From Nitrospinota bacterium (GTDB lineage Bacteria > Nitrospinota_A > UBA7883 > JACRLM01): a DNA stretch of 64,000 bases. The translations under genes were made by a program, and so were the position numbers. The DNA lies in contig JACRLM010000031.1 of NCBI GenBank assembly GCA_016235255.1, positions 43,763-107,762 of the forward strand, read 5' to 3'. Shown piece after piece: positions 1,843 to 25,010 of this stretch. Numbering within the stretch: the stretch's first letter is position 1; each line of letters opens with the position of its first letter. The notes below the pieces were generated by a model. That model ran no database searches. It saw only the letters and a list, made by a program, of their open reading frames with translations, and was not told the origin of the DNA.

Positions 1843-3351
1843 ATGACAACGGATTCCGCTGCGCCATGTGACACGGGCCGTGACCGCATGGCGGATTACC
1901 CCGTCCTTTTCATCGCCGGAACGCTCATAGCGCTGGCCCAGTACTTCCTTTTGCAGGAGGTCACCGCGCTTACCGCCGGCACCGAAATCGTGATACTGCT
2001 CGTCACGGTGGCTTACTTTTCAGGATTTTCCATCGGATACACTCTTTCCGGACGGATCTCCGAACCGGCCATAATAAAACTGATCGCGCTTTTTTTTCTT
2101 TTGCACCTTACGTTCCCGTTTTCATTACGGCTCCTGGCCGGGGCGCTGCATGAAATGCTTCCCGGCCTTGCGGCGCTGGCGCTTTTGTTCGTCACGGCGT
2201 TTGCGATGGTCTCCGTTTTTTCGATCCTCCTCCCGGCGTACATAGACAGGCGCGGGCCGGCCTCGCTCCCGGCGCTGTACGCCACCGAGCTTTGCGGAAC
2301 CGCCTTCGGATTCGCCGTGATATTCGGCGTGGGGGCCGCCCAGGCTTACGCTGTGGCGGCGATTTACCATGTGGCGTTCGCGGCCCTGGTGGGCGCCGTG
2401 TTCTGGAACATGAAAGCGGCCTTGGCGGCGCTTGCATTGGCCGGTGTTTCCGTGTTCATGTCCTCTTCGATGGACCGGTGGTCGCTATCCTATTTCTATG
2501 AGCGCGCTTTCGGCGTCAAAGACGCCCAGACCCTCTACAGCGTGTACAGTCCATATCAGAAGGTGGACATTATCGAGGCAAAGTCCGGATCGCGAAGGCT
2601 GTACCTTAACGGGCTTTTGTTTTACGGCTCCGGCTCGCTGCGCCAGTTCAACCTGTACCTGACGAGGCTTCCGGTGGAGCTTGCCGCCCCGGCAAATACG
2701 CTTATCATAGGCTCGGGATCCATGGAGTCCGTCGCGTATGCGTCACAAAAATCGGCCAGCGTCACCACGGTGGAAATAGACGAGGCGGTGATAAAAGGGA
2801 GCCTGGCCTATTTCACAGATGTGAACATGGGCGGGAAAATACCCGGTTGGCGCTACGTGGTGGACGACGGCAAGCATTTCCTGGGATCGGGCGTGGAGAA
2901 ATATGACCTGATATCCGTGGACGTGCCTGCGCCTTTCACCATACAGACCGGGCTTGTATATTCGGAGGACTTCATGCGGCTTGCGCGCGGGAGGCTCTCG
3001 CCCAAAGGCGTTTTCTCAATTTCGTTGTGCGGCAGGATAGATGACGGAGGGATGATCGCCACGGCTGTGGCCGCCGCTGTGCTGAACACCTTTGACGGCG
3101 TGATAATCCACACTCCCGAAAAATCCCCATACAGTTTCGCGTTGGCCGGGCATAAACTCCCTTTCACAAAAGAGCAGGCCGCGCGATTGATCGGGCAGTA
3201 CGGCGGCGGGACCGTGAAAATAATGGACAAAGCCGAGGCGATGGCGGCGGTGGGGGGCGCAAAGCCGATCAGGTGGGACGATCCTAGCCTGCCGGTGAAG
3301 GCCAGCTTGCGGCGGACCGCGAAAAAATTCTTCCCCGCGGAGGGGAGATGA
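1843..3351 (+). CDS. Spermidine-synthase-like (polyamine aminopropyltransferase fold) protein fused to an N-terminal polytopic membrane domain
   Basis: The N-terminal ~200 aa are hydrophobic with multiple TM helices. The C-terminal half (YQKVDIIEAKSGSRRLYLNG...LIIGSGSMESVAYA...VTTVEIDEAVI...DLISVDVPAP) matches the SpeE-like Rossmann methyltransferase/aminopropyltransferase fold. AAAGGA lies upstream of the ATG at 1843. An alternative start is at 1888. Confidence 0.5.
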   Translation: MTTDSAAPCDTGRDRMADYPVLFIAGTLIALAQYFLLQEVTALTAGTEIVILLVTVAYFSGFSIGYTLSGRISEPAIIKLIALFFLLHLTFPFSLRLLAGALHEMLPGLAALALLFVTAFAMVSVFSILLPAYIDRRGPASLPALYATELCGTAFGFAVIFGVGAAQAYAVAAIYHVAFAALVGAVFWNMKAALAALALAGVSVFMSSSMDRWSLSYFYERAFGVKDAQTLYSVYSPYQKVDIIEAKSGSRRLYLNGLLFYGSGSLRQFNLYLTRLPVELAAPANTLIIGSGSMESVAYASQKSASVTTVEIDEAVIKGSLAYFTDVNMGGKIPGWRYVVDDGKHFLGSGVEKYDLISVDVPAPFTIQTGLVYSEDFMRLARGRLSPKGVFSISLCGRIDDGGMIATAVAAAVLNTFDGVIIHTPEKSPYSFALAGHKLPFTKEQAARLIGQYGGGTVKIMDKAEAMAAVGGAKPIRWDDPSLPVKASLRRTAKKFFPAEGR

Positions 3352-3887
3352 ACGGATCAGCGGGGCTAAAGACTTTATACGTGTTCATGATGGGGTTTTT
3401 TCTCGCCCTCACGCAGACCGGCTTTTTTTTCGGAATGGAGATATTTTTCACCTCCGCTTTCGCCGGATTCGGCGCTGTGGCCGGCGGCTGGCTTCTGGGA
3501 AGCGCGGCGGGGCTTTTCATCGCAAAAGCGCGAATATGGGGGAGCGGCGCCGTCCGCGCGCAGATTGCCCACATAGCCTTGTGCCTTGCCGCGTACTACG
3601 CCTTGCAATGGGGATTGCGGACGGCTCCTTTCGACACGGCGCTGGCGCCTGTGTACATAGTCCTCATCGCCGTCTCAGGATCGCAGGCCGGAGCTTTCTT
3701 TGCCCGGAGCGGCGGGATTTTCCCCACAGCCTCGCGGCTTTATCTGTGGGAGAACAACGGGTTCATCGCCGGGTGGGTGGCCGGATTCGCAGGGTACGTT
3801 TTCATGGGGAGCGGATTTACATTATGGGCGCCAGCATTGGCCGCCGCGCTCACGGCCTCGTTGGGAAACAGGGCGCACAAGGCCTGA
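3348..3887 (+). CDS. Hypothetical polytopic membrane protein, translationally coupled (ATGA overlap) to the SpeE-like gene
   Basis: The start overlaps the upstream stop at 3348-3351. The product has 5-6 predicted TM helices rich in G/A/F and no recognisable family motif. Confidence 0.45.
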   Translation: MNGSAGLKTLYVFMMGFFLALTQTGFFFGMEIFFTSAFAGFGAVAGGWLLGSAAGLFIAKARIWGSGAVRAQIAHIALCLAAYYALQWGLRTAPFDTALAPVYIVLIAVSGSQAGAFFARSGGIFPTASRLYLWENNGFIAGWVAGFAGYVFMGSGFTLWAPALAAALTASLGNRAHKA

Positions 3888-4089: not shown

Positions 4090-5349
4090 ATGGACGGAAA
4101 AATCGCGGTCCCGGCTTACATGGCGGACTTTGCATGCCTTGGCGGCGAGTGCGACATGACATGCTGCCGTGTATGGGATGTCCCCTATGATGACGCGGCG
4201 TTTGACCGCTTGCAATCGGCCATGAGCCGGGATGAGTGGGCCGCAACCCTGAAAAATTTCCGCGCTCCCGATGTGGAGATAAAGGGGGCGAAGAGCATAG
4301 TAAAACTGCGGCCGGACGGTTATTGCGTATTTTTCGATGACAAAGGGCTCTGTTCCATACAGGGGAAGTACGGGGAGATGCGCCTTGGCGACGTTTGCGC
4401 CAAATACCCGCGCCAGTTCATCGGAATCGGGAACAGGATAGAGATGGTCGGCTGCCTTTCATGTCCGGAAGCTGTCCGGGGCCTTATCGCCAAGGGGGCG
4501 GCGCATGTGGCGGTAAAAGAGCCCTCATCGCTGCCACGGCCGGACTTGCTCACGCTCAAGCATTTTGTGGACACATCGTCCGCAAGTCTTTACCAAAGCG
4601 CATTTGACGATGTGCGGGGCGTTCTGCTTCAGCTATTGCAGGACGCTTCCCATCCGTTGGACACGCGACTTTTTCTGGCCAGCTATTTCGCCTCCCGCAC
4701 ATCCACTTTCTTCAGGAAAGGGGCCGGACGTGAGCATGCCGGGAAATTGGCCGTGGAGATAAAGAATATATTGTCGTCTGCGGCGCAGATGGAGCTTAAG
4801 GCCGGTTTTGACTCGATCAGTTTTTCCAGCAAGCTTGCCGTCTCCACCATCCGCGGCGTTCTGGAAGTCCGGGCCAAAACAAAAAGCGTCTTCCCGGAAT
4901 ATGTGGAGCTTATCGGGAAAATCGCGGACCATTACGCAGGCGAATCCTCGTCGGACGCTCTCTGGAAAGCGTATGAAGGGAGCAAATCCGCCGCGCCGCA
5001 ATCAGTGCGGGACTATTTTGACAGGCTGCTCGGCAATTACTGCGCGGAGCATTTGTTGTCCACCCCATATATAGTTGAAGAGGAGCTTCTTTCGTACATC
5101 GTGCTGCTCCTTTTGCGGGTGGCGGCGCTGCGTTTCATTTTCTACAGCCATCCGGACATTTATGAATTTCAGCATGAGGTGGACAAAATTCCGGAGGAAG
5201 ATTTTTATGGACGTCTGGCCGTGAAGACAGTGGTCTTTTTCACGAAAAACCTGGAGCACAACCTGGGTTACATGGAAGAGGTCAAAAAAGCGCTTGGGGG
5301 CGGCGGGATGTTCTCGCTGGCGCACGCGGCGGTCTTTATCAGGATGTGA
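4090..5349 (+). CDS. FliB-like flagellin lysine-N-methylase (YkgJ / CxxCxxCC-type Cys-rich family)
   Basis: The N-terminal FACLGGECDMTCCRVWDV (C-x4-C-x3-CC) matches my recollection of Salmonella FliB (FSCSGSACRDHCCKGWKI). The second cluster CVFFDDKGLCSIQGKYGEMRLGDVCAKYPR matches the FliB CPYLDEHRLC...C.SYPR block, and LSCPEAVRGLI matches LSCPEAARIIL. Confidence 0.55.
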   Translation: MDGKIAVPAYMADFACLGGECDMTCCRVWDVPYDDAAFDRLQSAMSRDEWAATLKNFRAPDVEIKGAKSIVKLRPDGYCVFFDDKGLCSIQGKYGEMRLGDVCAKYPRQFIGIGNRIEMVGCLSCPEAVRGLIAKGAAHVAVKEPSSLPRPDLLTLKHFVDTSSASLYQSAFDDVRGVLLQLLQDASHPLDTRLFLASYFASRTSTFFRKGAGREHAGKLAVEIKNILSSAAQMELKAGFDSISFSSKLAVSTIRGVLEVRAKTKSVFPEYVELIGKIADHYAGESSSDALWKAYEGSKSAAPQSVRDYFDRLLGNYCAEHLLSTPYIVEEELLSYIVLLLLRVAALRFIFYSHPDIYEFQHEVDKIPEEDFYGRLAVKTVVFFTKNLEHNLGYMEEVKKALGGGGMFSLAHAAVFIRM

Positions 5350-6679: not shown

Positions 6680-8800
6680 ATGACCCACCCATCCGTTGAC
6701 CTCGCCTCTCCAGTGCAGTTCCTCAAGGGTGTGGGGCCGCGCCGGGCGGAGCTTCTGGGCAAACTTGGAATCCAGACAGTGCGGGATCTTTTGAATCATT
6801 TCCCGCAGCGCTACGAAGACCGCGCCGCAATCAAACCGATAGCCCAGACCCAGGTGGACAATCTGGAGACCGTGCGGGGCGTCGTGAAAAACGTTTCCGT
6901 ATCCCCCATGGGGCGCACCCGGAAAAAAGTGTTCGAGGCGGCGTTCGCCGACAAGTCCGGCGTCATCCGCGCCATATGGTTCAAGTTTCCCGAAAAGGCG
7001 TATCTGCAAAGGTACGCCGTGGGGACGGAATGGATAGTTTCCGGCAAGGTCACTGTCAATAAATTCCGGGGCAACAAGGTGATCATCCACCCGGAGACCG
7101 AGGAGGCGGACATTGAACCGGGGGACGAGGGCGCCGCTGATTCATATAAAATCGTCCCCATATACCCCCTCACGGAAGGGCTTATCCAGCGGGCCTTGCG
7201 CGGCATCATAAAATCGGCCGAGCCGTTGATAGAACATATCGCCGACTTTATCCCCGATGAACTTAATGAGCGGTACAAACTGCCGGGGCTTGCGGAAAGC
7301 ATGGCGTATATCCATTCCCCCCCGCCGGATGCGGACGTGAACTCTCTAAACGAGTTTGAGGACCGCCACCAGAAAAAGCTTATCTTCAACGAGTTCTTCC
7401 TCGTGCAGACCGGCCTTGCGCTGAAGCATGGGACCGCCCGCGCCAAAATCCCCGGCGTGGCGATGGGGGTGGAGAGCGCGTTGATGGAAAAAATCCGATC
7501 CGTGTTCCCCTTTCCGTTGACGGGGGCGCAGAAACGGGCGCTAGGCGAGATCACGGCGGACATGACTTCCGACAAGCCGATGAGCAGGTTGCTGCAAGGG
7601 GACGTTGGAAGCGGGAAGACCGCCGTGGCCCTCTCCGCCGCGTTGATCGCCGTGCACAACCGCAAACAGGCCGCCATAATGGCCCCCACGGAGATATTGG
7701 CGAACCAGCATTACAAAAACATAAGCAGGGCGCTTGGCGCCACAAAAGTTCGCGTCGAACTTATAACTTCAGGTTCGGACGGAAAGAAGGAGGCCATATC
7801 CCGCGCCATGAGCGGCGAGGCGCACATCATCATCGGCACACACGCGTTGATACAGGAAGGGGTGGATTTCCACAACCTTGGGCTTGTGATAATAGACGAG
7901 CAACACAGGTTCGGTGTGCGCCAGCGGGCGGAGCTTATGAAACGCGGCGTCCACGCACACACTCTGATAATGAGCGCCACGCCGATCCCACGGACGCTGG
8001 CGATGACACTATATGGCGACCTTGACGTGTCGGTGTTGGACGAAATGCCGCCCGGGCGCACCCCCATCTCAACGAAAATCCATGAGCCGGAGCAGCGCCG
8101 CCGCGCCATCGAATTAGTGCGCGACGAAGTGAAAAAAGGGAGGCAGGCGTATATCATTTATCCGTTGGTGGAGGAGAGTGAGAAGCTGGAATTAAAGGCC
8201 GCCGTCACCATGTTCGAGCATCTGCGCGAAGGTGATTTCGCCGGATTGCGGCTCGGCCTCACCCATGGCCGGATGAAAAGCGCGGAGAAGGACGAGGTGA
8301 TGGAACGGTTCGGCCGGGGGGAGATAGACATACTCGTCTCCACCACGGTGATAGAGGTGGGGATAGATTACCCCAACGCCACGGTGATGATGATAGAGCA
8401 CGCGGACAGGTTCGGCCTAAGCCAGCTTCACCAATTGCGCGGGCGGGTGGGGCGCGGGACGCATTCTTCGCATTGTTTGTTGATGGCCGAATGCCACCGT
8501 GGCGCTCCAGGATGGGACAGATTGAAGGTGATGGAAAAATTTCAGGACGGATTCAAGATCGCCGAGGAAGACCTTGCGCGGCGCGGCGCCGGCGACTTTT
8601 TCGGATCGAAACAATCAGGATTGCCGGAATTTAAAATCGGGGATATATTGCGCGACCACCGCATACTTGCCGAAGCCCGCAAGGCGGCCTTTGCCTTGGT
8701 GGAAGAAGACCCTAAACTGGCGAAACCGGAGAACGCGAAATTATTGAAAGCGGTGAAGGAGAATTGGAAGGACAGGTTTGAATTGGGGGAGGTGGGATAG
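6680..8800 (+). CDS. recG: ATP-dependent DNA helicase RecG
   Basis: The N-terminus PVQFLKGVGPRRAELLGKLGIQTVRDLLNHFPQRYEDR is the RecG signature. Helicase motifs GDVGSGKT, DEQHRFG and QLHQLRGRVGRG are present. Start chosen at the ATG at 6680 (MTHPS), preceded by AGGAG. Confidence 0.9.
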   Translation: MTHPSVDLASPVQFLKGVGPRRAELLGKLGIQTVRDLLNHFPQRYEDRAAIKPIAQTQVDNLETVRGVVKNVSVSPMGRTRKKVFEAAFADKSGVIRAIWFKFPEKAYLQRYAVGTEWIVSGKVTVNKFRGNKVIIHPETEEADIEPGDEGAADSYKIVPIYPLTEGLIQRALRGIIKSAEPLIEHIADFIPDELNERYKLPGLAESMAYIHSPPPDADVNSLNEFEDRHQKKLIFNEFFLVQTGLALKHGTARAKIPGVAMGVESALMEKIRSVFPFPLTGAQKRALGEITADMTSDKPMSRLLQGDVGSGKTAVALSAALIAVHNRKQAAIMAPTEILANQHYKNISRALGATKVRVELITSGSDGKKEAISRAMSGEAHIIIGTHALIQEGVDFHNLGLVIIDEQHRFGVRQRAELMKRGVHAHTLIMSATPIPRTLAMTLYGDLDVSVLDEMPPGRTPISTKIHEPEQRRRAIELVRDEVKKGRQAYIIYPLVEESEKLELKAAVTMFEHLREGDFAGLRLGLTHGRMKSAEKDEVMERFGRGEIDILVSTTVIEVGIDYPNATVMMIEHADRFGLSQLHQLRGRVGRGTHSSHCLLMAECHRGAPGWDRLKVMEKFQDGFKIAEEDLARRGAGDFFGSKQSGLPEFKIGDILRDHRILAEARKAAFALVEEDPKLAKPENAKLLKAVKENWKDRFELGEVG

Positions 8801-8834
8801 CGCGGCTATATATAGATCGCCATGCTCGCGCCAT

Positions 8835-8927
8835 GTCATCCCGGAAGCCGTAATCGGCTATCCGGGATCACGGTATACAAGGGGCAACCCGGTGGGGGTC
8901 GCCTGAGGGCAAGCCAGCGGCTTGCCC
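8835..8927. repeat. REP-like palindromic intergenic element (two adjacent hairpins)
   Basis: Hairpin 1: GTCATCCCGGAAGCC-gtaatc-GGCTATCCGGGAT (8835-8868). Hairpin 2: GGGCAAGCC-agc-GGCTTGCCC (8907-8927). The hairpin-1 arm reappears in inverted orientation at 35752-35783. Confidence 0.45.
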
Positions 8928-8978
8928 CTACAAGGCGCTGATGCCGGATCAAGTCCGGTATGACAATTATTGAGCGCT

Positions 8979-9749
8979 CTACCCCACCCTCACAATCTTA
9001 CCCGGCCTGTCCTGCCCGGCCACTTCAAACGGTGTTGCGCCGCCGGGCAATGCTTCTTCCGCCATCTGGCGCACCAGATGTGGATTATTGTTCGTTTGCG
9101 ACACGTGGGCGAAGGTGATCCCTTGCAGGTTTGCGTGAACCACGTTTTTCACAAGCTCGAGGCATTGCCCATTTGAAAGGTGCCCGTTGCGGCTGGCGAT
9201 GCGTTGCTTCAACTCCCACGGGTACGGCCCGGCCTTTAGCATCTCGGGATCGTGGTTTGATTCCAGAATCATATAATCGGCCCCGGCTATTTTGCGCTCC
9301 ATAAGCCAGGTCACATATCCCGCGTCCGTCGCCACCGCCAGGCTGATTCCGCCCACCCTGAATATAAACGCGCAAGTGTCCCGCGCGTCGTGCGGGATGG
9401 AGAATGACACCACCTCTATCCCGCATGCGTCAAAAGCGCTTCCGGTGGCGAAATGCTCCACCCGGGGCAATTTCCCCAACCTATCCTTCACCGCATGATG
9501 GGTCTCCCGGTTCATGAATACCGGAACTTTCAAATTGCGCGCAACCACTCCGGCGCCTTTCACATGGTCGTTATGTTCGTGGCTTACCACGATGGCCTTG
9601 ATGTGATCCGGACGTATCCCCGCCTCGCTCAACCTTGCCAGTGTTCCTTTCGCGGAGAAACCCGCGTCCAACAGAATTCCCTCCCGCTCACCGCCAATGA
9701 ATATGGAATTGCCGGACGAACCGGAGCCGAGGACGCAAAGACGCAGCAT
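8979..9749 (-). CDS. MBL-fold metallo-hydrolase (YycJ/PhnP-like)
   Basis: HEHNDHVKG (the HxHxDH metallo-beta-lactamase motif) together with downstream His/Asp ligands. Confidence 0.75.
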   Translation of the reverse strand: MLRLCVLGSGSSGNSIFIGGEREGILLDAGFSAKGTLARLSEAGIRPDHIKAIVVSHEHNDHVKGAGVVARNLKVPVFMNRETHHAVKDRLGKLPRVEHFATGSAFDACGIEVVSFSIPHDARDTCAFIFRVGGISLAVATDAGYVTWLMERKIAGADYMILESNHDPEMLKAGPYPWELKQRIASRNGHLSNGQCLELVKNVVHANLQGITFAHVSQTNNNPHLVRQMAEEALPGGATPFEVAGQDRPGKIVRVG

Positions 9750-9756
9750 CGGAATG

Positions 9757-10704
9757 TTAATCCGACACCAGCATGTGATATAACAGCGGAATCATTATCT
9801 CGTGATGGCCCGTGATGGATATTCCGCGCCCGGCGCCCTGGATGGGGCGGTTCACAACGTTCACGGCGGGGCGGTAATGCTGGATCATGTCCATGTTCAC
9901 GGTCATAAATTCCGAAACATCGCTCCCCAGATTCCGCGCGGCGGAAAGCGCCTTGATGAACACCTCCGGCAATATCACAGACGAGCCGACGTTAAGGTAC
10001 ACCCCGCCGCCGCCGAGTTGGGAGACGACGCCGGTGAACAGGCGGAAATCGTTCAGCGTGGCCCGACCCGTCGCCGCGCCGTCCACGTTCGGATGGATAT
10101 GCACGATGTCCGTGCCGATGGCGGCGTGGACCGTCACCGGGATTTTGCGGTCATAACCGTTCGCCAACAGCGACAATGCGGCGTTGGGCATTTTTGATTC
10201 GGCGATATACCGCCCGATAGCTTCCCCCATGCCGGTGTCGCCAGTGGCGAACTTTTTTAACGCACCGTTAAAATGCGCCGCCGTCTCCTCCACCATGCCA
10301 AAGCGCCCTTCTTTTATTTCCACCGCCACATCTTCGCTGGTGGCCCCGTTAAACGCTATTTCCAGATCGTGCACCGCCCCCGCCCCGTTCATCGCCAGCG
10401 CGTCGAGGATGCCACGTTCCATAAGGTTGATGAGGATCGGCGGCATGCCGCACTTGATCACATGCGCCCCGATGGCCATCACAACGGGTTTGCCTTTGGA
10501 CTTTGCATCGCGTATGGCGGACACCACCTTGCGCAAATCATTCGCCTTTAGTATCGAAGGGAGCAGATCGGAAAACTTCCCGCTTTTTTGATACGCCGCC
10601 ACGTCCGCGAACATCCCGGTGGTGACGAGGCTTTTGCGCCCGGCGATCGGGTATGACCCGATTTTCGAAAAGTCCGCCGGTTTGAATTTGTATCCGTCCG
10701 CCAT
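9757..10704 (-). CDS. Deoxyhypusine-synthase-like NAD-binding protein (bacterial DHS-like family)
   Basis: The product is ~315 aa. KPVVMAIGAHVIKCGMPPILINLMERGILDALAMNGAG, HAAIGTDIVHIHP and GGGGVYLNVGSSVILPEVF follow the architecture of deoxyhypusine synthase (TIFLGYTSNLISSG..VLVTTAGG, FSPALTDGSLGDM, ILGGGVVKHHI). The gene ends 8 nt before the MBL start, so the two are probably co-transcribed. Confidence 0.4.
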   Translation of the reverse strand: MADGYKFKPADFSKIGSYPIAGRKSLVTTGMFADVAAYQKSGKFSDLLPSILKANDLRKVVSAIRDAKSKGKPVVMAIGAHVIKCGMPPILINLMERGILDALAMNGAGAVHDLEIAFNGATSEDVAVEIKEGRFGMVEETAAHFNGALKKFATGDTGMGEAIGRYIAESKMPNAALSLLANGYDRKIPVTVHAAIGTDIVHIHPNVDGAATGRATLNDFRLFTGVVSQLGGGGVYLNVGSSVILPEVFIKALSAARNLGSDVSEFMTVNMDMIQHYRPAVNVVNRPIQGAGRGISITGHHEIMIPLLYHMLVSD

Positions 10705-10929
10705 TTATTTAATCAATTCCATGAATTCATCCAACGTCAGGCCAGCCTGCTCGATTATGTTCACCAGCGTTCCCTTTTTTATGTCCCTGTTCTGGTGATG
10801 GGGGACAACCACCCGGAAGCCCTCTTTCTTGAATATTTTATGGCTCCCCTTTTGCCGATGCTCGATAAAGCCCGCCTTCACCAAGGCTTTGACCACTTCA
10901 CGGCTTTTTAGCGTGGGAGTTTTCGTCAA
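10705..10929 (-). CDS. hicA: HicA-family type II toxin (mRNA interferase)
   Basis: 74 aa; KSREVVKALVKAGFIEHRQKGSHKIF...VVVPHH is typical of HicA. Confidence 0.8.
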   Translation of the reverse strand: MTKTPTLKSREVVKALVKAGFIEHRQKGSHKIFKKEGFRVVVPHHQNRDIKKGTLVNIIEQAGLTLDEFMELIK

Positions 10930-11147
10930 ACGCTGGCTTCCACCTCGAGGAACAAACGGTTTTCCTCCGGGACGGGCAATCCGTCCGCCTCCAAGCTTTC
11001 AATATAAAGGTCCATAGCTTCCTTGATGTTGGCTATGGCCTCATCATAAGTGTCCCCTTGTGAAATGCACCCGGGCAACGAAGGGACCAAAGCGGTGAAT
11101 CCCCCTTCTTCCTGTGGTTCAAGGATGACCTTGTAATAGCGTTTCAT
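10926..11147 (-). CDS. hicB: HicB-family antitoxin
   Basis: MKRYYKVILEPQEEGGFTALVPSLPGCISQGDTYDEAIANIKEAM is the HicB (UPF0150) N-terminal fold. GGAG lies 6 nt upstream of the ATG at 11147. There is a 4-nt overlap with hicA. Confidence 0.75.
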   Translation of the reverse strand: MKRYYKVILEPQEEGGFTALVPSLPGCISQGDTYDEAIANIKEAMDLYIESLEADGLPVPEENRLFLEVEASV

Positions 11148-11231
11148 GATATCTCCGCTTTCCAACAATTACCTGGCGGCAAGTTTCTTTGTTTATTATA
11201 GCTATCCCGCGCGCCGGGGAGCCATTTATAT

Positions 11232-24932: not shown

Positions 24933-25010
24933 GCGCCCGTAGCTCAGCCCGGATAGAGCGCCAGATTGCGGTTCTGTAGGTCGCAGGTTCGAATCCTGCC
25001 GGGCGCACCA
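24933..25010 (+). tRNA. tRNA-Arg, anticodon read as GCG (includes the encoded CCA)
   Basis: Manual cloverleaf: acceptor GCGCCCG/CGGGCGC, D-stem GCTC/GAGC with D-loop AGCCCGGATA, anticodon stem CCAGA/TCTGT, loop TTGCGGT, T-arm GCAGG-TTCGAAT-CCTGC, discriminator A, then CCA. Overall similarity to E. coli tRNA-Arg(ACG) is high. Confidence 0.85.

Follow-up and report, generated by a model that had tools for sequence, protein, structure and literature searches.

The closest characterised analogue of the system described here is fungal. NHMT of Aspergillus nidulans (AN4663; Batth et al., 2023) has a seven-helix transmembrane (7-TM) domain (residues 1-215), described as unlike known folds and needed for activity, followed by a spermidine synthase (SpdS)-like domain in which the acidic residue of the GxG(D/E)G motif is Ile; the enzyme is a proven methyltransferase for His1 of secreted lytic polysaccharide monooxygenases (LPMOs) in the lumen of the endoplasmic reticulum (ER) (PMC10349129). 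In plants, Golgi transporters of the major facilitator superfamily (MFS) for S-adenosylmethionine (SAM), the GoSAMTs, feed lumenal methyltransferases. We analyzed a pair of adjacent bacterial genes, here called E and P, in a 64-kb window (the whole stretch of contig JACRLM010000031.1, from a Nitrospinota bacterium, that was studied). E joins a membrane domain to a spermidine-synthase fold, and P is a small membrane protein. We propose that the two proteins form a split MFS-like core, which supplies SAM to a periplasmic methyltransferase tethered to it, and that this enzyme modifies targets in the envelope, a reading that we favor tentatively and with slightly less than even confidence. All of the evidence on E and P is computational, and their functions are inferred from it.

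Membrane-fused SpdS-like proteins are already annotated in bacteria (COG4262; 'fused MFS/spermidine synthase' of NCBIfam). A first-pass annotation of this DNA, made from the letters alone, had called such fusions poorly characterised. This holds: literature searches on membrane-bound spermidine synthases, MFS-SpdS fusions and COG4262 gave no functional study of bacterial members.

Gene organization and distribution

The gene pair and its parts are as follows.

1843-3351, + strand: gene E, 502 aa, a 7-helix TM domain plus a spermidine-synthase-fold domain; alternative annotated start at ATG 1888 (Met16)
1843-2487, + strand: TM domain of E, aa 1-215
2488-3351, + strand: spermidine-synthase-fold domain of E, aa 216-502, with remodelled cofactor and substrate site
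3339-3351, + strand: translational-coupling junction, the Shine-Dalgarno sequence GGAGGGGAG (3339-3347) within the end of gene E, then ATGA
3348-3887, + strand: gene P, 179 aa, a stand-alone six-helix MFS half-bundle

The first-pass annotation had described a 502-aa protein with a multi-TM N-domain (which we place at ~215 aa) and a SpeE-like fold, translationally coupled to a 179-aa polytopic membrane protein. Both open reading frames (ORFs) and the coupling are confirmed. The ATG of P (3348-3350) overlaps the TGA stop of E (3349-3351; ...GGGAG ATGA ACGG...), and the Shine-Dalgarno sequence ahead of it is strong; AAAGGA precedes ATG 1843 of E. In the NCBI record, a Nitrospinae metagenome-assembled genome (MAG), E is annotated from Met16 (HZB29_03650, 487 aa) and P as HZB29_03655, both as hypothetical proteins. 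The identical pair was found on three other metagenomic contigs.

Relatives of E were sought in one genome per species, using a scan seeded by an 11-sequence alignment subset. Full-length relatives were identified at 27 loci in seven phyla (Nitrospinota, Nitrospirota, Fidelibacterota, Chloroflexota, Verrucomicrobiota, Gammaproteobacteria and Myxococcota). P lies directly downstream of E, on the same strand, in 26/27 loci, and no other neighboring gene is conserved across phyla among the 27. The -4 (ATGA) overlap recurs in L004, L005, L010, L011, L012 and L019; gaps elsewhere range from -68 to +82, with the exception of L014, which contains a first-start ORF artefact. Given the conserved families and this adjacency, E and P are real genes and not chance ORFs.

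In some relatives the two proteins are joined. L057 encodes a single-chain P-E protein and lacks a separate partner gene. In L055 (4520-8552) and L058 (4515-9243) the pair is duplicated in tandem, with the first partner gene fused to the second enzyme gene: the gene order in L055 is E1, P1-E2 fusion, P2, and L058 has one 1080-aa chain comprising two partner domains, then the enzyme. The contexts of L055 and L057 explain the origin of P-E fusions. E and P are one unit and their linkage is obligate; we count both the linkage and the fusions as computationally established.

A remodelled spermidine synthase active site

E matches PF01564 and has the SpdS fold. The profile match is significant and the GxG of the cofactor motif is kept, so the fold proposed in the first-pass annotation stands. 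Scores against the SpeE equivalog models of NCBIfam are far below cutoff (PRK00811, 69.3 vs 260; TIGR00417, 46.9 vs 249.55; PRK03612, 52.5 vs 472), and the match to NF037959, 'fused MFS/spermidine synthase', is weak (20.2 bits vs a cutoff of 40, E-value 2e-4, aa 60-426).

Functional residues were mapped by alignment to the spermidine synthase of Plasmodium falciparum (Pf). The Asp of the GGGDG motif (Pf D127, human D104) is S293 in E (GSGS293M). The catalytic Tyr (Pf Y102, human Y79) is F269, and N270 takes the place of the adjoining His/Gln. At the position of the distal putrescine-binding Asp (Pf D199, human D176) E has A363, in the motif VD360VPA363P that stands in place of VDSSDP. Retained are the adenosine-binding residues (Q239, E311 and D342) and the catalytic Asp (human D173, Pf D196), which is D360 in E.

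We counted these residues in 52 unique close family members and in 98 wider sequences found by exhaustively searching 1.84 billion cluster representatives. The informative position is the one just after GxG, where an Asp would select decarboxylated SAM (dcSAM); it is Ser, Thr or Ala in 150/150 sequences (S39/T13 in the close members; S88/T6/A4 in the wider set) and never Asp or Glu. The distal Asp position is occupied by A/S/V/M in the close members, and is never acidic there or in the wider sequences. The acidic residues for dcSAM and putrescine, whose conservation the first-pass annotation had proposed to check, are accordingly both gone, and with them the case for its aminopropyl-transfer or polyamine chemistry. 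The Tyr position is F/L/H and never Tyr in the close family, and is Tyr in 14/98 wider sequences. Kept in the close members are Q239 (51/52), E311 as Glu or Asp (52/52), D342 (52/52) and D360 (51/52); D360 is also kept in 92/98 wider sequences. Around the former active site N270, K344, P362 and Q368 are new and invariant, and K344, P362 and Q368 are family-specific.

Judged by its residues, the E family is not an aminopropyltransferase family, those for dcSAM and putrescine having been lost uniformly. With these lost and the adenosyl site and D360 kept, a SAM-dependent transferase is most likely. The pattern matches the known conversion of spermidine synthase to SAM methyltransferase, as in plant putrescine N-methyltransferase (PMT) and fungal NHMT. 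In Datura spermidine synthase, the D103I change eliminates aminopropyl transfer and gives rise to putrescine N-methyltransferase activity, which Q79T and V106T raise (PMC3725402). All three equivalent positions are altered in E (S293, N270 and S296). E has what is expected of SpdS-derived SAM methyltransferases of the PMT / NHMT / METTL13-C type (PMC3725402; PMC10349129): the SpdS fold, no acidic residue at the Asp site, and adenosine-binding residues that are kept. The profile of the soluble domain is more similar to true spermidine synthases (E-value 2e-25) than to METTL13 (E-value 1e-6). By analogy with the characterised enzymes, the domain is most likely a SpdS-derived lineage with switched cofactor and substrate, acting as a SAM-dependent N-methyltransferase.

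A probable membrane core shared by E and P

In an AlphaFold2 model, the helices of E span residues 15-43, 48-69, 74-88, 93-135, 139-163, 168-187 and 190-223, after which the SpdS fold begins. Near-invariant in this TM domain are E39, E48, H88, P92, R96, P131, Y146, E149 and G152. P has the fold of an MFS half-domain, a six-helix bundle, and its invariant residues are G16, Q23, W48, G55, P94, G115, F117, F118, E135-N-N-G-F139, G142 and P162. No Pfam or NCBIfam match was identified for P, although a profile search found at least 147 relatives (165-224 aa), all unnamed. P alone provides six helices, not 12, and we propose that the other half is TM1-6 of E.

Profile-profile comparison (hhalign) aligns the E TM domain with P over 147 columns, TM1-6 in register, with an E-value of 9.7e-5 and 58% probability; an earlier comparison with small alignments had given an E-value of 0.005 and 7% probability. 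The aligning motifs are in TM1 (G..L.L.Q), in TM2, after TM3 (PF) and in TM5 (LY/LF..E..G). A HMMER profile of the E TM domain did not retrieve the P family itself. The E-type TM domain is rare: a TM-domain profile found only 218 clusters with it in the 1.84 billion representatives. A P-type domain occurs in the same chain in 28/37 long E-type relatives (E-values 1e-20 to 1e-49), and in fusions it is N-terminal to the TM domain and SpdS-like domain. Taken together, the register alignment, the synteny in 26/27 loci and the P-E fusions argue strongly for a single MFS-like core of 12 helices, six from P and the first six of E.

Predicted location of the catalytic domain

The side of the membrane on which the SpdS-like domain lies can be predicted from charge, as loops rich in Lys and Arg (K/R) lie on the cytoplasmic side (the positive-inside rule). 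Across the family the K+R content per loop of E is 1.58 / 0.19 / 1.52 / 1.35 / 1.29 / 0.33 / 1.54. A seven-helix model with the N-terminus inside (N-in) places 5.93 K+R inside and 1.87 outside. The linkers between P and E in fusions are 5-12 aa long, or strongly basic (in P0179, 46 aa with 13 K/R), or a hydrophobic stretch of ~40 residues consistent with a hairpin of two helices, and thus the N-terminus of E is placed in the cytoplasm. Helix 7 (aa 190-223) is hydrophobic in 96% of the 98 sequences and is richer in K/R on its N-terminal side; the chain therefore appears to cross the membrane once more past the six-helix half.

The fused relatives provide a further argument. In 16/28 of them, exactly one strongly hydrophobic 17-mer and then a short K/R-rich C-terminal tail (e.g., RRRRAAR, RYLPRLRPRNK) come after the SpdS-like domain. 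In P0028 the 7 TM helices and the domain are followed by one further TM helix, RWRRRTR and a second six-helix unit. Only with an extracytoplasmic domain are these C-terminal anchors, and P0028, in keeping with the positive-inside rule. On four partly independent arguments, we infer that the catalytic domain of E faces outside the cytoplasm, a placement that is well supported and that we consider probable.

Proposed mechanism and alternatives

We predict that helices 1-6 of E are one MFS half and the six helices of P the other, so that the core is split over two polypeptides, and that helix 7 of E carries the spermidine-synthase-derived domain to the periplasmic side. There the domain would bind the adenosyl cofactor, with D360 positioning the attacking amine. 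It would alkylate, and probably methylate, an envelope target, which may be a protein (secreted or membrane-anchored) or an amine on a lipid or glycan. SAM synthesis occurs only in the cytoplasm. With the domain outward, a supply route is needed, and the enzyme is built onto an MFS-like core. The E/P core could thus conduct SAM from the cytoplasm to the tethered outward domain. Conserved acidic and polar residues (E39, E48, H88, R96, Y146 and E149 of E; Q23 and E135-N-N of P) occur in helices that usually line the MFS cavity, and the glutamates among them (E39, E48 and E149 of E; E135 of P) would be well matched to SAM, which is a cation. The GoSAMT and NHMT precedents support in principle an MFS-supplied SAM at a non-cytoplasmic methyltransferase. 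It is by analogy only that we propose methyl transfer, the passage of SAM through the core and the kind of substrate.

Several observations weigh against this proposal. Literature searches found no periplasmic SAM-dependent enzyme in bacteria, and because none is known the prior for an outward SAM enzyme is low. Ser/Thr at the Asp site does not alone prove SAM use or catalysis, and the domain could be a non-catalytic ligand binder. A Pfam MFS match is absent for P and for the E TM domain (18 TM-domain sequences), and the homology of the latter to the MFS rests on a moderate profile-profile score (the 58% probability given above). The loop between TM2 and TM3 of E, with the consensus GYxLS(D/R)(R/K)LSx(R/K)xL(R/K), resembles MFS motif A only partly: the loose pattern is present in 9/98 sequences and the strict pattern in 0/98. 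If aa 74-105 form a re-entrant hairpin, the domain would be inside the cell, although the charge bias of this arrangement (K+R 4.78 vs 3.02) is weaker than that of the N-in, 7-TM model. Finally, the substrate clues provided by neighboring genes (described below) differ between lineages, many loci have housekeeping neighbors, and the Asp-rich tails, which occur in some lineages, are absent in six further loci (fused or other forms).

The same outward topology would also suit a transporter with a capture domain. The E/P core would then be an importer or exporter, and the SpdS-like domain a pseudoenzyme whose only role is to bind methylthioadenosine (MTA), S-adenosylhomocysteine (SAH), SAM or some other ligand, either delivering the ligand to the transporter or controlling the transporter's gate. 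This accommodates the MFS half-fold of P, the E-P fusions and the loss of several SpdS catalytic and substrate residues, and requires no SAM outside the cell. We consider it unlikely, as D360 is kept in 51/52 and 92/98 sequences, and the new invariant residues N270, K344, P362 and Q368 line the former site, the usual pattern of an enzyme that has been retuned, as opposed to one in decay. Moreover, NHMT is catalytic, and we know of no MFS transporters with tethered extracytoplasmic binding domains. A little less probable again is that the topology prediction is wrong and that E is a cytoplasm-facing SAM methyltransferase for a lipid head group or for the cytoplasmic end of a membrane protein, with its TM domain and P forming a substrate-binding groove or product flippase. 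PilD, which methylates prepilins, offers a comparison. This location is disfavored by the much larger charge bias of the N-in, 7-TM model (5.93 vs 1.87) and by the 16/28 relatives with one helix and a basic tail, which, like P0028, break the positive-inside rule if the domain is cytoplasmic.

Other alternatives concern the group transferred. The domain might use SAM, not dcSAM, and yet move its 3-amino-3-carboxypropyl (acp) group onto an envelope amine, like nicotianamine-synthase-type enzymes and acp-transferases. A place for the SAM carboxylate could be provided by S296, the invariant K344 and the Ser/Thr hydroxyl that every close family member has at the Asp site. Moving a propyl chain is what the SpdS scaffold is made for, and the profile is closer to true aminopropyltransferases (2e-25) than to METTL13 (1e-6). 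We nevertheless regard acp transfer as improbable, since the characterised SpdS derivatives without this Asp (PMT, NHMT and the METTL13 C-domain) are all methyltransferases. Least probable is a membrane-anchored aminopropyltransferase for non-canonical polyamine synthesis, tied to the gene at 9757-10704, as the first-pass annotation had suggested. The PF01564 match, the SpdS fold and D360 agree with it, whereas the dcSAM-selecting Asp is absent in 150/150 sequences, none of them has the putrescine Asp at its distal position, and the catalytic Tyr is found in 0/52 close members (and in 14/98 wider ones). The equivalent single mutation kills spermidine synthase activity, the SpeE equivalog scores are far below cutoff, and the gene at 9757-10704, a member of the GSU2086 family, accompanies the pair in none of the 27 relatives. 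Sequence evidence thus already largely refutes this reading.

For the outward methyltransferase that we prefer, the fullest form of the proposal would be a self-contained periplasmic methylation machine, in which the split MFS exports or presents SAM to its own tethered methyltransferase, and this modifies secreted or envelope molecules. We regard this fuller version as doubtful. Its targets may include secreted proteins with Asp-rich tails and the multihaem cytochrome that adjoins E, both described next.

Neighboring genes and clues to the substrate

The gene directly upstream of E is the following.

664-1671, + strand: multihaem c-type cytochrome lipoprotein with 11 CxxCH motifs and the lipobox IAGC, 171 bp upstream of E on the same strand

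The C-terminal tail of this cytochrome is Asp/Gly-rich (...ADGYGDDGGEGGHGGGDN). It also contains two copies of an internal near-duplicate segment, HTYTSGCSSCHSPTT(N/D)HSGRSSSCETCHTYPTW. Homologous cytochromes adjoin E-P in L004, L010 and L012; the L004 homologue has the Asp-rich tail, and those of L010 and L012 end only in ...HRGDYD. An association of the cytochrome with the pair is possible, at low confidence.

Secreted proteins with Asp-rich, low-complexity C-terminal tails are encoded directly upstream of E-P, or within two genes of it, in several unrelated lineages. They include DUF5666/PepSY proteins in an operon with an extracytoplasmic function (ECF) sigma factor in five Anaerolineae, a protein with the tail HHHHDDDD in L016, and SdrD-B/DUF7507 adhesin-like proteins with DK/DS repeats in three Gammaproteobacteria (DK/DS repeats also occur in L025). 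These neighbors are non-homologous (loci L013, L014, L016, L017, L019, L021, L024, L025, L027 and L028), and the Anaerolineae tails consist of N/D/S/G repeats ending in GMGGMG. Under a strict criterion (at least 7 Asp in the last 30 residues), 6/25 adjacent upstream genes have such tails, as opposed to 4/444 other genes, in the first 27 loci (Fisher p 2e-6, without correction for relatedness, in ~five independent lineages); 3 of the 4 other genes also lie within two genes of E-P. Because the tails are absent from the six further loci, we keep them only as a lineage-restricted clue. They are an unexplained association and not evidence of substrate identity.

In L019 (1439-7979), as in L013, L014, L017 and L021, E-P ends a tight six-gene, same-strand Anaerolineae operon, in the order 529-aa protein, ECF sigma factor, PepSY protein, DUF5666+PepSY protein, E and P. 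This layout suggests envelope-stress-type regulation in that lineage. Two GspG-like pseudopilin genes (E-values 1e-9 and 1e-6, below cutoff) adjoin the fused P-P-E gene of L058 (9262-10922, - strand), and a PilY1-like gene is two genes upstream of E-P in L025; these pilin links may be coincidental. The idea of pilin or pseudopilin neighbors was dropped, given that only L058 has GspG-like matches, these being sub-threshold, and that the neighbors in L062 and L057 were unrecognised.

Other genes in the window appear to be unconnected with the pair. A homologue of the FliB-type flagellin lysine-N-methylase (4090-5349, + strand; NF038110, 152 bits vs a cutoff of 85) lies 203 bp downstream of P, and such a gene is near E-P in 0/27 relatives. 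On the - strand, 8979-10704 holds a metallo-beta-lactamase (MBL)-fold hydrolase gene (8979-9749) and a GSU2086-family gene (9757-10704), separated by a 7-bp gap. The latter had been taken as deoxyhypusine-synthase-like in the first-pass annotation, which saw in it a second polyamine-chemistry homologue alongside E. It scores below cutoff for deoxyhypusine synthase (PF01916, 20.9 vs 27; TIGR00321, 20.8 vs 304) and well above it for GSU2086 (NF052581, 403 vs 250), a family with weak likeness to deoxyhypusine synthase and to the C-terminal Rossmann domain of ArgZ. It is 6 kb from E-P, on the other strand, and is near the pair in 0/27 relatives. Thus, the window does not contain two linked polyamine-chemistry genes. 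Functional links of E-P to the GSU2086-like, FliB-like, MBL and argG neighbors were rejected, as no such gene accompanies the pair in its relatives. At 10705-11168 (- strand) there is a HicA toxin / HicB-like antitoxin pair, mapped from gene calls on the identical contig L001 (12459-12901). The sole Rfam/ARAGORN match in the 64-kb window is a tRNA-Arg (anticodon GCG) at 24933-25010 (+ strand).

Significance and comparison with known systems

New here are a rare, coherent clade from which the dcSAM and putrescine residues are uniformly lost; a previously undescribed half-MFS partner family, P, that has no Pfam model; a split or permuted MFS organization, backed by synteny and gene fusions; and the predicted placing of a SAM-type domain outside the cytoplasm. 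Annotation as polyamine enzymes is routine for membrane-fused 'spermidine synthases', and for the whole E clade this transfer of annotation from SpeE is wrong. It affects ~218 clusters at 50% identity, including those of abundant marine Nitrospina, Marinimicrobia and Anaerolineae. E-P would also be a clear case of an MFS transporter split over two genes. If the outward topology and SAM dependence are true, bacteria would have a route to periplasmic SAM chemistry, now assumed not to occur, and a new class of modifications of envelope or secreted proteins. A periplasmic methylation machine, if real, would be the first demonstration in bacteria of a SAM-dependent enzyme working outside the cytoplasm. 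E-P would then stand as the prokaryotic equivalent of fungal NHMT, which might even have evolved from it, and would offer a mechanistic hypothesis for how cofactor reaches this LPMO-methylating 7TM enzyme, which is of biotechnological relevance.

E differs from SpeE (PF01564; TIGR00417, PRK00811) in that the dcSAM Asp, the putrescine Asp and the catalytic Tyr (Phe/Leu/His in E) are changed, and in being membrane-embedded and predicted to face outward. The proteins of PRK03612 / COG4262 and NF037959 resemble E in that a polytopic N-terminal membrane region is fused to a SpdS-like domain. NF037959 aligns from TM2 of E to the catalytic domain (aa 60-426), indicating a related architecture, but E is not a member. 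Unlike these proteins, E-P has its second MFS half in a separate, translationally coupled gene, and the large PRK03612 and NF037959 families were not retrieved by the E TM-domain profile (218 clusters only). One locus encodes both kinds of protein: in L015, a Verrucomicrobiales MAG, E-P is directly followed by a 715-aa 'fused MFS/spermidine synthase'-type protein (7981-10128, + strand) that has two tandem TM repeats in cis (~13 helices), a SpdS-like domain and the cofactor motif GSGYG. The operon contains two distinct membrane SpdS-like systems.

MFS transporters, including GoSAMT, normally have both halves in one chain, whereas E-P has them in two genes or in a permuted P-E fusion, and one half carries an enzyme-like domain. 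Plant PMT and the C-terminal domain of human METTL13 differ from E in being soluble and cytosolic, and PMT in addition keeps the putrescine-binding Asp. NHMT differs from E in having Ile at the Asp site (Ser/Thr in the E family) and in being eukaryotic, and a second half-MFS subunit has not been reported for it. The two have nearly the same layout, ~215 aa with seven TM helices, then a SpdS-like domain without the acidic residue, although the TM domains are likened by layout only. As is proposed for E, NHMT acts on secreted proteins, in an ER lumen that is topologically equivalent to the periplasm.

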